The position numbers were made by a program, and so were the translations under genes. Positions 9,601 to 13,045 of a DNA stretch of 24,000 nucleotides are shown in pieces; the first letter of the stretch is position 1, and each line of letters starts with the position of its first letter. The stretch is from Vogesella urethralis (GTDB lineage: Bacteria; Pseudomonadota; Gammaproteobacteria; Burkholderiales; Chromobacteriaceae): assembly GCF_007644045.2 (NCBI RefSeq), contig NZ_VMDW02000090.1:7762-31761 (forward strand). Direction: 5' to 3'. The notes under the pieces are model-generated. The model did no database searches. It worked only from the letters and a program-made list of their open reading frames with translations, and was not told the origin of the DNA.

Positions 9601-12540
9601 GCGCAGAACAGCAGCAGCGAAAGCCACAGCCGCGACGAGAAAAAATCCGGCTTGATGAGCAGCGGTGGGCTGGGCTTTACCATCGGCAAAGCTGCGCAAG
9701 GTAACGCCAACAGCGTCACCACCACCCAAGCAGTGGGCAGCACCCTCGGCAGCGTGCAGGGTGATGTGGTGATTCAAGCTGGCCAGGCCTATCGCCAGAC
9801 CGGTTCCAGCGTACTGACGCCACAGGGTGATATCGATGTGCAGGCGCAAAGCATCACCATCGAGGAGGCGCGCCAGCAAACGCGGGTGGACAGCAGTAGC
9901 TACAGCAAGCAAAGCGGGCTGACTGTGGCCATCAGCAACCCGGTTGTCAGCGCTGCGCAAACGGTACAGGGCATGCAGCAAGCCGCCAGCCAGACCGGCG
10001 ATGCCCGCATGCAAGCGTTGGCCGCCGCCAGTGCCGGGCTAGCCACCTACCGCGCCGCGCAAGACGTGGCCGCCCAGCCTGGGCAGCTGGGCGGCGTCAC
10101 CGTTAGCGCCAGCATCGGTAGCAGCCGTAGCAGCAGCCAAAACACGCAAAGTAGCAACCAGGCAGCGGCGTCCACCCTGGCCGCCGGCGGCAACCTCAGC
10201 CTGCGCGCCACAGGGGCAGGGCAAGCCAGCGACCTCACCGTACAAGGCAGTCAGTTGCAAGCTGGCGGCAACGCGCTATTGCAAGCCGATGACCAGATCA
10301 CGCTACAAGCCGCCCGCAATACCGCCGAGCAGCACAGCCGCAATAGCAGTGGCAGCGGCAGCATTGGTGTTAGCTGGAACACGGCGGCAGGCCCGCAAGC
10401 CACCCTCAGCGCCAGCCAGGGCCGAGGCCACGCCGATGGCAGCGACGTCACCTACAGCAACACTCACGTCAACGCCGGCCAGCAACTGACGCTCAGCAGC
10501 GGTGGCGATACCACGCTGCAAGGCGCCGTCGCCAGCGGGCAGCGTGTTACTGGTGACATCGGCGGCCAACTGCGCATCGACAGCCTGCAAGACAGTAGCC
10601 GCTACGACAGCCACCAACAGAACGCCGGCTTTAGCATCGCCGCCGGGACGGGGAGCGCCAGCGGCAGCATCAGTGCCGGCAACACCCGCATCGATAGCGA
10701 CTACCTGAACGTGGCCGAACAAAGCGGCCTGAAAGCCGGCGACGGCGGCTTCCAGCTCACGGTAAAAGGCGATACCACCCTCAGCGGCGGCGTCATCGCC
10801 AGCAGTAATGCCGCCGTGCAAGCCGGCGTCAACCGGCTGGACACCGCGGCCACCCACCTCAGCGACCTGCACAACCAGGCCAGCTACAAGGCCAGCGGCT
10901 ACAGCGTCAACGTCGGCGTCAGCAGTGGCAAACCCAGCGGCAGCGCCGGCATCGGACAAGACAGCGGCAGCGCTGCCTCCGACACCCGCGCTGGCATTAG
11001 CGGCATCGCCGGCAACAGCAGCGTGCGCAGCGGCGACGCCGAAACCGGCATCGCCAACCCGTTCGACGCCCAGCGCGTGGCGGCCAACGTGGGGGCACAG
11101 GTCGCCATCAGCGCAGAATTCGGCCGCCAGGCCCCGCGCGCGTGGGCCGACTACGCCCAGGCGCAGTACAAGGCAGCGCAAGCCAGTGGCAACGCCGACG
11201 AAGCCGCCAAATGGGCCGAAGGCGGCGCCTACCGCGTTGCCGGCCATAGCGTGCTGGGTGGGCTGTCCGGTGGCGTGGCCGGGGCAGCCGGCGCTGTCAG
11301 CAGCGCCAGCCTGATGCCCAAGCTGGGCGAGCAGCTGGACAGTAGCGACCTGCCCGCCGCCGTCAAGCAAGCCATCGGCATGGTAGCCAGCGCCACGCTG
11401 GGGGCGGTCAGCGGCGGTGCTGCTGGCGCGGCGATCGGGCTGAATGTGGATGTCAACAACCGGCAGTTGCATCCGGAGGAAGAGCGTGCCATTGCCCAGC
11501 TTGCGAAGGGTGATAAGGACAAGGCCCAGCGCTTGCGTGCGGCGGCCTGCTATCTGGTGAAATGTTCTGCAGAGTTCCTGAGTGGCCCTCAAGCCGATTA
11601 CTACAGTCAACTGGAGCGACAAGGCGCCAGTATGCAAAGCGAACAGCAACAGTTACTGCAATATCAAGAAACTGTGATATTGCAAAAGGCTAGTGGTTAC
11701 CCCGCAGTCCAGACCGTTACCATAAAAAATCTGTTCCAGTACAGCAGGGAAGACCTGGTTGCAGATAGCCATGCTCGCCTGACGGAGTTGCGGGTGAGTC
11801 AATTGGGCAGTCTTGGCCTGACCCCGTCGCAGGCGCATTCATTGCTCGCCACAGCGGGTACCGCCGCCTTGGTTGCAGGCACCGTTGCTGGGTACAAGCT
11901 CGGGGGGCTGGATGAGCTATTGGCGACAGCCAAGGTTGAAAATAATGCCGGCGCCAAGCTTAATAATCAGTTTTATCGTGATGGCGCGATTGCGGATACG
12001 TCCAGGACGTTGTCTGTGGGTGGTCCTTGGAAGGCAGCAGTAGAACTGACGCCTAAAGAAGCCAACAACCTGCTAAATAGCAGCTTGCCAGTTGGTGCCA
12101 AGATAACGGGCAGGCAGGACGCTAATCTTGAGAACGCTAAAGCTATTGCAGAAGGCTATCAACCACCCTTTGTGCAAGGAACACAGGTGCTGCAGATTGT
12201 GATCGATAAACCAACGAAGTTTGTTCGTGTATTTGGTGGTGATTCGGGGCAGGTAGGAAGTTGGGTGATGAAAGCCGAGGATGTTGTAGGTCTGACGCCC
12301 CAACAGATTGCCAGCAAGTACAGTTTGCCGCAGGTACCGACCATGATTGGTGACGTTACTTTGCCAGCCAGAACAAAAATGAATGTGAGTGTGGCTGGCG
12401 GTATATCCCCTGGCGCTGCAAAAGGCGTAGTGACTGGTGATAATGGTGGCGGCGGCGGTGTGCAGTTTCAAATAACTACCAGACCGCTATCTCGAGATGA
12501 ATTTGCGAATTGGTTCGGAAATGCACGGGTGTTGAAATGA
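3472..12540 (+). CDS. cdiA: CdiA contact-dependent inhibition exoprotein (filamentous-haemagglutinin-family TpsA) with polymorphic C-terminal toxin
   Basis: 3022-aa ORF with AGGAG at 3460-3464, 7 nt before the ATG. It carries an ESPR-like N-terminus, TPS-domain motifs, two long FHA-type repeat tracts, a PT-VENN-like Gly/Ala-rich pretoxin region ending VDVNN, and a compositionally distinct C-terminal region. Confidence 0.95.
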   Translation: MNQHCYRLVFNAHRRMLMAVAEITPQQGANASATRARPVVGRLSAALRPLVACLLLAHGAVWTLPAAAQIVADPAVPGSQRPTVLTTSSGAVQVNIQTPSAAGVSLNQYRQFDTGDAGTILNNSRVNVQTQSAGWVAANPWLATGSARVIVNQVNSQHPSLLRGTLEVAGQRAEVIIANPAGLQVSGATFLNASRTVLTSGTPVINGGSLDGYRVSGGQVSIGGNGLDTSASDYTAILARSVAANAGIWAQQLQVGTGSQAYAADGSGQGALAASGPAPAFALDVAALGGMYAGKIVLVGTEHGLGVRNAGKLVAGAGGLRLQADGQLLNSGTLGATDAAADVQLQTGAVSNDGTLSSARNLQLDSSGRLSNQGTLSAARQLTLNAAQLDNASSGAIDAQRLAITTATLNNSGQLRQSGSQVLAVQAGQLQNSGSIGALPAQAAPGSGASAGAGSGNAEATVVQPLPLPEVAPAAGSSVQAAAPEVLPAGSIQVSGLLDNRGRILANGGIDLASQGGLVNHGTLALRQLQVGGERFDNSQGSLSAQAANIDTLTIGNQQGKLQIQGDAVLHSQAFDNRDGQIGAGGSLQLRSSQLDNQHGSVVAGQTLTVQGEALDNRAGTLASVGELQLQAGSVDNRGGRLQGEAGLRVQADGVLDNREHGLLSAAASLVVQAASVLNQQGEMAAARVQAQSLGGWQNAEGKLLSQQSLYLQAANLDNQAGQILAGQDGSVMASGTIRNQVGRLQAAQRLQLQAEEVQNGGGLLAGQALQLESGSGGLDNRGGRVLAGLQGGQLAGSGLNNTAGVIYSDGALQIDTRGQLLDNSAGGQLQSQAALQLDTGLLDNRQAQLLAAGPLNVHASALDNRGGQVQSAAGITVQLAAALHNEDGLLRSNAGLRVQADQLYNQQTRHSDRGIEAASIQLQTPHLFNQQGALRGDYLTLRLGQLANQQGELSARQQLSLSPDDGAELHIDNDGGTLQAGDRLHLQATGLQGQGRLLSAGALNLQLAGDFRHDGQLQAGTDARLSIHGRLSNAGSLQAGRQLRIEAAALDNRNGASVAADETRLDITGQLDNRGLIDGRLTRITAGVLANDSTGRIYGDRLVIQARTVQNTGDGHAAPVIAARQQLDIAAGQISNQEQALIFSGGDMVLGGALDAAERATGQAGSLDNASARIETLGQLTLAVDTLQNRDTHLQYQYQPGPVSRTVTHYLNGVALDSAGLLLAKWEGDGIAYVPPEQTDWLGDDDYRKLLILSPRYPLSRFAAYYQHFPAPSQDYSYTKCRKDENCTTTQVGGAWYGNSDPIWATFGVLPPPGEPPLSADNPGRRYAGISLGQTSYSVTIDPPPEKGSAIRTLYFDHPVTQQELQEWQRWSAWHDNEYVPAHAKLDAAIGEFAPLISTNAAPVRMLDAGAQWVDNWRYRDSTSSTQTPVVSATQPGEIVAGGDLSITLGRSGSNHSRILAGQNLVVTGGKLDNIALQEDAITDIQGVDVYTHVESRRFKGDVRRNDSSPFANTERHAVVLQQGISQAHQAWQDGHAAPSALSLLSAPSGDAMAAPGHVSVTGQQTLPGVTELALPASVNGALDVIRTGGLSLTLPRSRLYLQQPERSAKVLIQTDPRFTQYGKWLSSDYMLSQLASDPAASQKRLGDGFYEQKLIRDQVAQLTGRRFLDGYASDEAQYRALMDSGLTFARQYGLRPGVALSAEQMARLSSDIVWLVSETLTLPDGSQQSVLTPRLYVRTTPGDLQADGALLSGDRINLTLAGDLNNSGSIAGRRLVDIKAANFSQQGGQLSAADIQVQASHNLHNLGGQIGASNSLQLHAGNDLTLASTTRQADGVNDQRTYLDRIASLYLSGGNGLLLASAGGNLTLQGATIVNQAAAGQTLLQAGKDLQLATLTTQSSHQAQWAPGNALQESQQQDNGSQISSQGSLYLQASGDVHATAANVSSAQGHLGLQAGGNIQLDSGQSRTQLDETHHNSQKGLLSSRSTTTRDTLDQTQAIGSQLSGQTVSVSAGKDLTVTGSSIASDLATTLNAGGNVTLAAAQNSSSESHSRDEKKSGLMSSGGLGFTIGKAAQGNANSVTTTQAVGSTLGSVQGDVVIQAGQAYRQTGSSVLTPQGDIDVQAQSITIEEARQQTRVDSSSYSKQSGLTVAISNPVVSAAQTVQGMQQAASQTGDARMQALAAASAGLATYRAAQDVAAQPGQLGGVTVSASIGSSRSSSQNTQSSNQAAASTLAAGGNLSLRATGAGQASDLTVQGSQLQAGGNALLQADDQITLQAARNTAEQHSRNSSGSGSIGVSWNTAAGPQATLSASQGRGHADGSDVTYSNTHVNAGQQLTLSSGGDTTLQGAVASGQRVTGDIGGQLRIDSLQDSSRYDSHQQNAGFSIAAGTGSASGSISAGNTRIDSDYLNVAEQSGLKAGDGGFQLTVKGDTTLSGGVIASSNAAVQAGVNRLDTAATHLSDLHNQASYKASGYSVNVGVSSGKPSGSAGIGQDSGSAASDTRAGISGIAGNSSVRSGDAETGIANPFDAQRVAANVGAQVAISAEFGRQAPRAWADYAQAQYKAAQASGNADEAAKWAEGGAYRVAGHSVLGGLSGGVAGAAGAVSSASLMPKLGEQLDSSDLPAAVKQAIGMVASATLGAVSGGAAGAAIGLNVDVNNRQLHPEEERAIAQLAKGDKDKAQRLRAAACYLVKCSAEFLSGPQADYYSQLERQGASMQSEQQQLLQYQETVILQKASGYPAVQTVTIKNLFQYSREDLVADSHARLTELRVSQLGSLGLTPSQAHSLLATAGTAALVAGTVAGYKLGGLDELLATAKVENNAGAKLNNQFYRDGAIADTSRTLSVGGPWKAAVELTPKEANNLLNSSLPVGAKITGRQDANLENAKAIAEGYQPPFVQGTQVLQIVIDKPTKFVRVFGGDSGQVGSWVMKAEDVVGLTPQQIASKYSLPQVPTMIGDVTLPARTKMNVSVAGGISPGAAKGVVTGDNGGGGGVQFQITTRPLSRDEFANWFGNARVLK
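3676..4416 (+). other. TPS (haemagglutination activity) secretion domain of CdiA
   Basis: VQVNIQTPSAAGVSLNQYRQFD, GTILNNS, AANPWL (NPNL-like), RAEVIIANPAGLQVSG (NPNGI-like) and GKIVLVGTEHGLGVRN. The boundaries are approximate. Confidence 0.8.
4420..7010 (+). repeat. FHA-1-type degenerate beta-helix repeats (protein-level periodicity within cdiA)
   Basis: Recurrent units of about 20 residues of the form LDN(R/Q)xGxLxAxxxLxLQAxx, for example LDNRAGTLASVGELQLQAGSVDNRGGRLQGEAGLRVQADGVLDNRE. The DNA copies are degenerate and the boundaries approximate. Confidence 0.7.
8720..10460 (+). repeat. FHA-2-type repeat tract of CdiA
   Basis: A second repeat style rich in G/S/Q/T/N: GDLNNSGSIAGRR, ASHNLHNLGGQIGASNSLQLHAGNDLTLAS, AGKDLTVTGSSIAS, AGGNVTLAAAQNS, GGNLSLRATG. 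The boundaries are approximate. Confidence 0.6.
10473..11477 (+). repeat. Direct repeat R1, copy a (within cdiA)
   Basis: It aligns without gaps to 14163-15167. In the 120 nt I compared base by base there were 10 mismatches. It also aligns to 17556-18186 over 10510-11167. Confidence 0.9.
11446..11475 (+). other. Pretoxin boundary motif VDVNNRQLHP (VENN-equivalent) separating conserved CdiA from variable CT
   Basis: The Gly/Ala-rich segment ...AIGMVASATLGAVSGGAAGAAIGLNVDVNNRQLHP is shared with the orphan copy at 15136-15165. The two sequences become unrelated immediately after it. Confidence 0.8.
11935..11946 (+). other. Second, literal VENN motif inside the CdiA-CT
   Basis: The codons gtt gaa aat aat encode VENN at the end of ..AGTAALVAGTVAGYKLGGLDELLATAKVENN, 197 codons before the stop. 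Confidence 0.6.
11947..12537 (+). other. C-terminal toxin domain of CdiA, tentatively TNT-like (NAD+ glycohydrolase / ART-related)
   Basis: KFVRVFGGDSGQVGSWVM ... SKYSLPQVP ... NVSVAGGISPGAAKGVVTGDNGGGGGVQFQI resembles, from memory, the TNT pattern (xDRxGxxxGxY...RALP...V..vAP..GqpGGxxQ). This is a tentative by-eye call. Confidence 0.45.

Positions 12541-13045: not shown

Follow-up and report, generated by a model that had tools for sequence, protein, structure and literature searches.

Bacteria in conflict repeatedly resort to depletion of NAD(P)+, and five families of type VI secretion system (T6SS) effectors that deploy it, Tne1 to Tne5, have been described singly. A 'palm domain' is common to TNT, Tse6, Tne2 and the Serratia Rhs1-CT, the last of which (PDB 6XTD) is an NAD(P)+ glycohydrolase (NADase), and TNT-type NADases possess one strictly conserved Gln (TNT Q822, Rhs1 Q1452) and aromatic residues around the nicotinamide ribose (PMC10539506). 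Arg, Phe and Gln overlap in TNT, AfNADase and Rhs1CT-1036 (PMC10539506); the NAD-binding Arg and its neighbouring aromatic residue are R757/Y765 in TNT and R129/F137 in AfNADase. Tne5, an Rhs-CT of P. gergoviae, has an SPN-like ADP-ribosyltransferase fold, its closest structure being streptococcal SPN (4KT6), with a Lys/Glu pocket, and that work shows that the fold alone cannot separate a transferase from a hydrolase (PMC13285283). In the literature searched, there is no experimentally characterised NADase delivered by contact-dependent growth inhibition (CDI); bioinformatic mentions of CDI-linked NADase domains exist. Here, we analyse a cdiBAI-type locus in a 24,000-nucleotide stretch of Vogesella urethralis DNA (contig NZ_VMDW02000090.1, positions 7,762 to 31,761; hereafter the window, to which the coordinates of the locus refer). 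The C-terminal region (CT) of its CdiA is probably a CDI-delivered NAD(P)+ glycohydrolase of TNT-like fold that is neutralised by a translationally coupled immunity protein.

The locus was delineated by gene calls and domain searches. The TpsB outer-membrane transporter gene cdiB (1694–3457, + strand; Pfam ShlB, E=1e-100, with POTRA_2 and POTRA_3) adjoins cdiA (3472–12540, +), which encodes a 3022-aa exoprotein with an ESPR, a two-partner secretion (TPS) domain and filamentous haemagglutinin (FHA) repeats (Fil_haemagg and Fil_haemagg_2). Direct reading of the sequence places the VENN pretoxin motif at 11935–11946 (+). It is followed by the variable CT, a toxin module of 197 aa plus stop (11947–12540, +; CdiA residues 2826–3022), and immediately downstream by the small 153-aa immunity gene cdiI (12537–12998, +). 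G+C content is 0.64–0.71 in the cdiA repeat region (3501–11500; a single bin, 7501–8000, is at 0.60), 0.51–0.54 in the CT and 0.43 in the cdiI ORF.

Predicted fold and conserved residues of the toxin

Sequence searches of Pfam, NCBIfam and the PDB returned no significant match for the CT. Its structure was modelled with AlphaFold2 from 53 family sequences and no templates, giving a mean predicted local distance difference test (pLDDT) score of 84.9 and a predicted template modelling (pTM) score of 0.79. The pLDDT falls below 50 only at residues 1–24, which are modelled as disordered, and in the loop 164–166, with low confidence extending to about residue 30 (residue numbers such as R94 count from the start of the CT). 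We searched this model against 350,542 PDB chains using Foldseek and inspected the 50 best matches, of which ranks 1–6 were all TNT-like NAD(P)+ glycohydrolases: Tne2 at rank 1 (6b12_A; E=6e-3, probability 1.00, template modelling score (TM-score) normalised to the target 0.67, root-mean-square deviation 2.8 Å), Tse6 at ranks 2, 3 and 5 (4zv4_C, 4zv0_A and 4zv4_D), the Serratia Rhs1-CT at rank 4 (6xtd_A) and the Neurospora crassa NADase at rank 6 (8r17_A). Probabilities drop sharply after rank 6, and the remaining matches are to unrelated proteins. Neither an ADP-ribosyltransferase (ART) nor TNT itself (4QLP) is among the 50 best PDB matches, and a control search of the same model in the viral BFVD library returned nothing comparable. 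The possibility that 6XTD represents an ART was ruled out, as it has been shown to be an NADase (PMC10539506), leaving no apparent transferase among the top matches. The predicted model, then, displays the palm-domain fold that characterises the TNT-like superfamily, and we consider assignment of the CT to a TNT-like fold very likely on the strength of this model.

The toxin belongs to a large family. Exhaustive HMMER searching against 1.84 billion cluster representatives recovered 887 representatives at E<=0.001, 314 of them at E<=1e-10. The core common to the family, which is the predicted TNT-like NADase core matched by Foldseek, spans CT residues about 50–197 (12094–12537, +). Conservation was assessed in 168 aligned homologous domains. 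The predicted NAD-binding Arg, R94 (CdiA R2919, codon 12226–12228, +), is invariant (168/168), and N63 (CdiA N2888, codon 12133–12135, +) is present in 163 domains (97 %), with a gap in the other five. W106 (CdiA W2931, codon 12262–12264, +), a candidate for the aromatic residue of the nicotinamide-ribose pocket, is W in 95 % and F in the remainder, while Q173 (CdiA Q2998, codon 12463–12465, +), the predicted equivalent of the Gln of TNT-type NADases, is 95 % conserved within a GGGxQ motif and supplies the conserved Gln of the TNT-like superfamily. Also conserved are G115-L116 (96 %), I121 (98 %), L127-P128 or 'LP' (98 %/89 %), P131 (97 %) and G169–G171 (78–92 %, G170 being at 92 %). Position 175 is variable (E in 50, D in 46 and Q in 43 of the domains) and is Q in the Vogesella protein. 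In the model, R94 lies on strand 90–96, W106 on the next strand (106–108) and Q173 on strand 172–176, an arrangement that would correspond to the order of the NAD-binding triad in the ART fold.

This pattern of conservation identifies R, 'LP' and GGGxQ as real family signatures. An earlier sequence-only reading of the window had described the CT as TNT/NADase-like from a series of motifs (FVRVFGGDSGQVGSW, SLP, VSVAGGISP and GDNGGGGGVQFQI), all of which are found in the sequence in the order given. R, LP and GGGxQ proved general to the family; VSVAGGISP and most of the loop that follows (residues about 151–168) are specific to a subclade and are predicted with low confidence in the AlphaFold2 model. 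The two residues that it proposed for mutation, the R in VRVF and the Q in VQFQ, are R94 and Q173. That reading had named a profile or structure search pointing to a non-NADase family as the outcome that would contradict it, and the six best PDB matches were NADases. Its likening of the CT to TNT holds for the fold and for GGGxQ; it does not extend to Pfam TNT membership, and the closest structure is Tne2 rather than TNT.

Members of the toxin family carry the domain at the C-terminus of TPS/haemagglutinin (CDI) proteins, of one PT-HINT protein and of proteins whose other N-terminal parts are DUF6861, DUF6862, DUF637, bacterial TSP3 repeats or lipase-like, a distribution as expected of a polymorphic-toxin domain. 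In one further locus (L024, 1–4064), a VgrG-PAAR-DUF4123 T6SS cluster includes a 250-aa family member that forms a cargo effector on its own, and a DUF7957 gene overlaps the stop of this effector gene.

The immunity protein and its relatives

CdiI has no sequence match in Pfam, NCBIfam or the PDB, and a word-based homologue search recovered only 11 relatives. Linkage to the toxin was examined in 16 toxin-bearing loci from reference genomes, mostly Betaproteobacteria; the hosts of the toxin loci comprise Hydrogenophaga, Variovorax, Thiomonas, Caldimonas, Hylemonella, Aquabacterium, Rhodocyclaceae, Thiobacillus, Zoogloea, a metagenome-assembled genome labelled Bordetella, and Nitrincola. A CdiI homologue lies directly 3′ of the toxin in 14 of these 16 loci and in one metagenomic locus seen in two samples (L004/L005), giving 15 distinct loci, across which the identities of toxin and immunity protein drop roughly in parallel (from 64 %/64 % to 40 %/31 %). 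The start of the immunity gene overlaps the stop of the toxin gene by four bases in 13 of the 15 (ATGA in 11, GTGA in 2). At the Vogesella locus, the ATG of cdiI at 12537 likewise forms an ATGA overlap with the cdiA TGA (12538–12540). The linkage in 15 loci and the overlap in 13 of them argue strongly, on genetic grounds, that the two genes form a cognate pair with coupled translation, and on this comparative basis cdiI is highly likely to be the cognate immunity gene of the CT.

In the CdiI model (pLDDT 79.6), beta strands predominate and there is a single helix; among its 50 best fold matches, the model weakly resembles beta-propeller blades. Known NADase immunity proteins, Tni2 included, are absent from these 50 matches, and Tni2 is likewise absent from the sequence matches of the CdiI profile. 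A connection to a second group of proteins emerged from the T6SS-type relatives of the toxin, which are followed by DUF7957 (PF25857) genes instead of cdiI. When one DUF7957 protein was searched in 401 genomes, a member of the toxin family was found directly upstream in six of the eight matches. Comparison of the CdiI family (23 sequences) with the DUF7957-type proteins (8 sequences) using hhalign gave a probability of 97.1 % (E=5e-11) over CdiI residues 16–143, and the two have the motifs N-x-N-V-[FY], WQ[VI], PF and Y-x-[IL]-D-x-x-T-G in common. This homology indicates that CdiI is an expanded, remote member of a superfamily that accompanies the toxin family. CdiI and DUF7957 are alike in their small size, their richness in beta strands and the position of their genes directly behind those of the toxin family; CdiI is some 50 residues longer and contains a helix (about 67–87) and a loop (about 96–118) as insertions. 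No PF25857 hit is recorded for the CdiI relatives, the DUF7957-type profile weakly touches PQQ-type propeller repeats, and DUF7957 is without a described function in the literature searched. For this ORF, the sequence-only reading had given the ATGA overlap, the length of 153 aa and the AT-richness correctly. Its description of the immunity protein as unrecognised is right in that there is no direct family match; the protein is nevertheless not isolated, having counterparts in 15 other loci and remote relatives in DUF7957.

A metagenomic locus, L022, contains another 153-aa ORF, which adjoins a DUF7957 gene and was considered as a possible relative; it is unrelated to CdiI. In the same locus, a Tsi6-family gene (5237–5512; E=1.2e-9) is positioned two genes after a DUF6861-toxin/DUF7957 pair. 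As Tsi6 is the immunity protein to the NADase Tse6, this may be a cluster of immunity genes that counter two toxins of the NADase type.

The Vogesella genome contains one further trace of the pair. A remnant of the same toxin, covering CT residues about 126–176 and lacking R94, is located at 18171–18321 (+) in an orphan ORF (17511–18380), with 94 % blastn identity to 12324–12475 and 73 % BLASTP identity over 70 aa. It is followed by the only other copy of cdiI (18374–18832, +), which has a different N-terminus and 88 % identity over the C-terminal 111 aa. The blastn match resumes between 12663–13016 and 18497–18850 at 89 %; the stretch between, 12476–12662 versus 18322–18496, encompassing the last ~21 residues of the toxin and the first 42 of CdiI, has diverged beyond blastn detection, and either an interface that sets specificity or mosaicism from recombination could account for this. 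In the resident CdiI, the N-terminal ~21 residues (12537–12600) fit the family profile poorly, the match beginning at profile position 22 as opposed to position 4 in the orphan copy.

Proposed mechanism and competing explanations

We infer the NADase chemistry, the roles of the individual residues, the mode of inhibition by CdiI and the route of entry as follows. CdiA would be exported by CdiB; when a neighbouring cell is touched, the part of CdiA that follows VENN would enter the cytoplasm of that cell, where the toxin would hydrolyse NAD+ and NADP+ to nicotinamide and ADP-ribose(-phosphate), exhausting the cofactor pool so that growth stops. The NAD pocket would be made up of R94 and Q173, with W106 as a probable third member. 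Producer cells and their siblings would be protected by CdiI, which would bind and neutralise the toxin, most likely through occlusion of the cleft, in the manner of the other NADase immunity proteins.

Several results weigh against an NADase of this kind. No activity has been reported for any member of the toxin family in the literature searched, and transferases, too, are found in the wider ART superfamily. Foldseek gives modest E-values (6e-3 to 0.4) and, after normalisation to the query, TM-scores of only 0.26–0.43; the common cleft proposed for R94, W106 and Q173 is deduced from predicted secondary-structure positions. At the sequence level, Pfam TNT (PF14021, cut-off 27 bits) does not match the CT at E<=10, and the hidden Markov model (HMM) of the toxin family finds nothing among the PDB sequences, 6B12 included. 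In two hhalign runs, the toxin-family profile was compared first with a single genuine TNT domain from a genome and then with three such domains; neither comparison was significant (probabilities 0.2 % and 1.8 %), and the register of the Arg relative to TNT agrees in one run and differs in the other; for both reasons, no sequence-level homology to TNT is claimed. Finally, the weak similarity of the CT to Ntox10 points to a family without known activity, in which the Gln position is apparently occupied by Glu.

The register of the Gln is more consistent. GGGvQF was aligned with the GxGtQF motif of TNT in both hhalign runs, and 6 of 58 relatives match Pfam TNT below threshold (best E=0.006; 13–17 bits against the 27-bit cut-off) at profile positions 50–77 of 88, that is, on the strand and GGGxQ segment, where coordinates were visible. 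Because the two runs and the sub-threshold matches share this register, we count the equivalence of Q173 to the TNT Gln as supported by sequence comparison.

The CT might instead be an ADP-ribosyltransferase that uses NAD+ to modify a macromolecule of the target cell, be it protein, RNA or DNA. TNT-like NADases fall within the wider ART fold, which, as shown for Tne5, cannot itself separate transferase from hydrolase (PMC13285283), and the placement of R on one strand and of Q-x-[E/D/Q] on a later one resembles the R-S-E/QxE layout, with Q-x-E occurring in 50 of the 168 domains. However, the Glu that canonical ARTs require is not conserved and is Gln in the Vogesella protein, whereas the residue that is conserved is the Gln typical of TNT-type NADases (PMC10539506); moreover, the six best PDB matches are all hydrolases, with no transferase among the 50 best. 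As position 175, the site of the catalytic Glu in the Q/ExE transferase motif, is variable and is Q here, a hydrolase is favoured, and we regard a transferase as unlikely.

A slightly less likely explanation still is that the CT is a divergent Ntox10-type toxin, or another beta-rich enzyme with a non-NAD activity such as a nuclease, and that its likeness to NADases is a coincidence of modelling and fold searching. Ntox10 (PF15520) is the only Pfam match of the CT (E=0.029, 14.7 bits against a cut-off of 26.8) and is colinear with it (CT residues 98–178 to profile positions 103–180 of 193); 16 of the 58 relatives match it below threshold, one 60 %-identical homologue carries a precomputed PF15520 hit, and the Foldseek E-values are not strong. 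Ntox10 is known from Bacteroidetes and Verrucomicrobia and is paired with Imm27 or Imm53 (Zhang et al. 2012, PMC3482391); as no activity is known for it, this explanation offers no mechanism. A genuine Ntox10 domain aligns only weakly with the toxin family (probability 28 %), CdiI matches neither Imm27 nor Imm53, and chance would hardly place six independent matches of a single functional class at the top of 350,542 chains. The BFVD control gave nothing comparable. Membership of Ntox10 was rejected on score and on immunity type; at best, Ntox10 is a distant relative of the toxin family. In a genuine Ntox10 domain (L038, 1501–1998, − strand; 130 bits), GGAREY stands where the toxin family has GGGxQ[FY]; it may be that Ntox10 is related to the toxin family, shares its fold and bears Glu instead of Gln. 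The least probable explanation is that the cassette has decayed or lost its activity, with the ORF behind the toxin no longer encoding a working immunity protein. The locus does contain a number of orphan and truncated modules, including the remnant of the same toxin, and the N-terminal 21 residues of the resident CdiI are a poor fit to the family profile. Nonetheless, the CT is full length, in frame with cdiA and modelled with high confidence, with all highly conserved family residues kept, and CdiI is intact, translationally coupled and retains all invariant family positions. We retain an NAD(P)+ glycohydrolase neutralised by CdiI as the preferred explanation.

Neighbouring elements and comparison with known systems

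Upstream of the toxin, the ~160 residues between VDVNN and VENN (11461–11934, +), where the drop in G+C starts, are not shared with the other loci that bear the same toxin, while the FHA-type sequence further upstream is common to them. This stretch forms a separate module, which presumably serves translocation and entry. In relatives, a single [IV]ENN directly precedes the conserved [FY]RDG-x-IADP segment; at the Vogesella locus, VENN is followed by AGAKLNN and then by QFYRDG (11929–11976), an arrangement suggestive of a small duplication involving the pretoxin motif.

Downstream of cdiA, orphan toxin/immunity modules lie in a row, including a BURPS668_1122-type deaminase fragment, Fil_haemagg fragments and a PoNi immunity gene. 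The deaminase toxin fragment (13014–14070; PF14424, E=1e-21) lacks a CdiA body and is overlapped by a 182-aa ORF with no family match. At the end of the array, the ORF at 19328–19723 encodes a PoNi (PoNe immunity) N-terminal domain (E=5.6e-7).

The kind of weapon proposed here, an NAD+-depleting toxin, is known; the toxin family and the immunity superfamily are widespread and uncharacterised, and our searches found no literature on either. We see an even chance that the 887-representative toxin family and the DUF7957/CdiI superfamily constitute a further NADase effector/immunity lineage beside Tne1–Tne5, deployed by CDI systems, as T6SS cargo and by other polymorphic toxins, with an immunity protein built of PQQ-like beta-propeller blades, a fold unseen in known NADase immunity proteins. 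If so, a large family without its own Pfam model would be added to the NADase toxins, many 'hypothetical' C-terminal domains of CDI, T6SS and other polymorphic toxins would gain a probable function, and DUF7957-type genes would gain a role as immunity proteins. The locus would also offer a CDI-delivered NADase for experimental study. The principle of toxin and immunity would be unchanged by this, and the value lies in annotation and family definition rather than in concept.

As the HMM of the toxin family reaches no solved NADase, the CT does not belong to Tne1, Tne2, Tne3 or TNT/Tne4 by sequence; membership of Tne2 was additionally rejected because the CdiI model and profile miss Tni2. Tne5, as defined in PMC13285283, was likewise rejected in a comparison at the level of fold matches and pocket residues, since the 50 best fold matches do not include 4KT6 and the invariant Arg and Gln of the toxin family stand against the Lys and Glu of Tne5. 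Among the known systems, Ntox10 resembles the CT in being a C-terminal domain of polymorphic toxins. TNT (PF14021), AfNADase and the N. crassa NADase have in common with it the (here predicted) palm fold, GGGxQ with its conserved Gln and, less securely, an invariant upstream Arg; the immunity factor of TNT is unrelated to CdiI. Tse6/Tne1 (4ZV0, 4ZV4) and the Serratia Rhs1-CT Db10 ('Tne3', 6XTD), which make up fold matches 2–5, would carry out the same chemistry as that predicted for the CT, and each has a family-specific immunity protein that blocks the cleft (PMC10539506). They are without detectable sequence similarity to the CT, Tsi6 and RhsI1 are unrelated to CdiI, and Tse6 additionally uses EF-Tu. 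The closest structural counterpart is the Tne2/Tni2 pair of Pseudomonas protegens (6B12), in which, as in the CT and CdiI, an interbacterial toxin domain ends a polymorphic effector and the immunity gene lies directly downstream; the two toxins are 16 % identical, and Tne2 is delivered by the T6SS, whereas the CT belongs to a CDI system.

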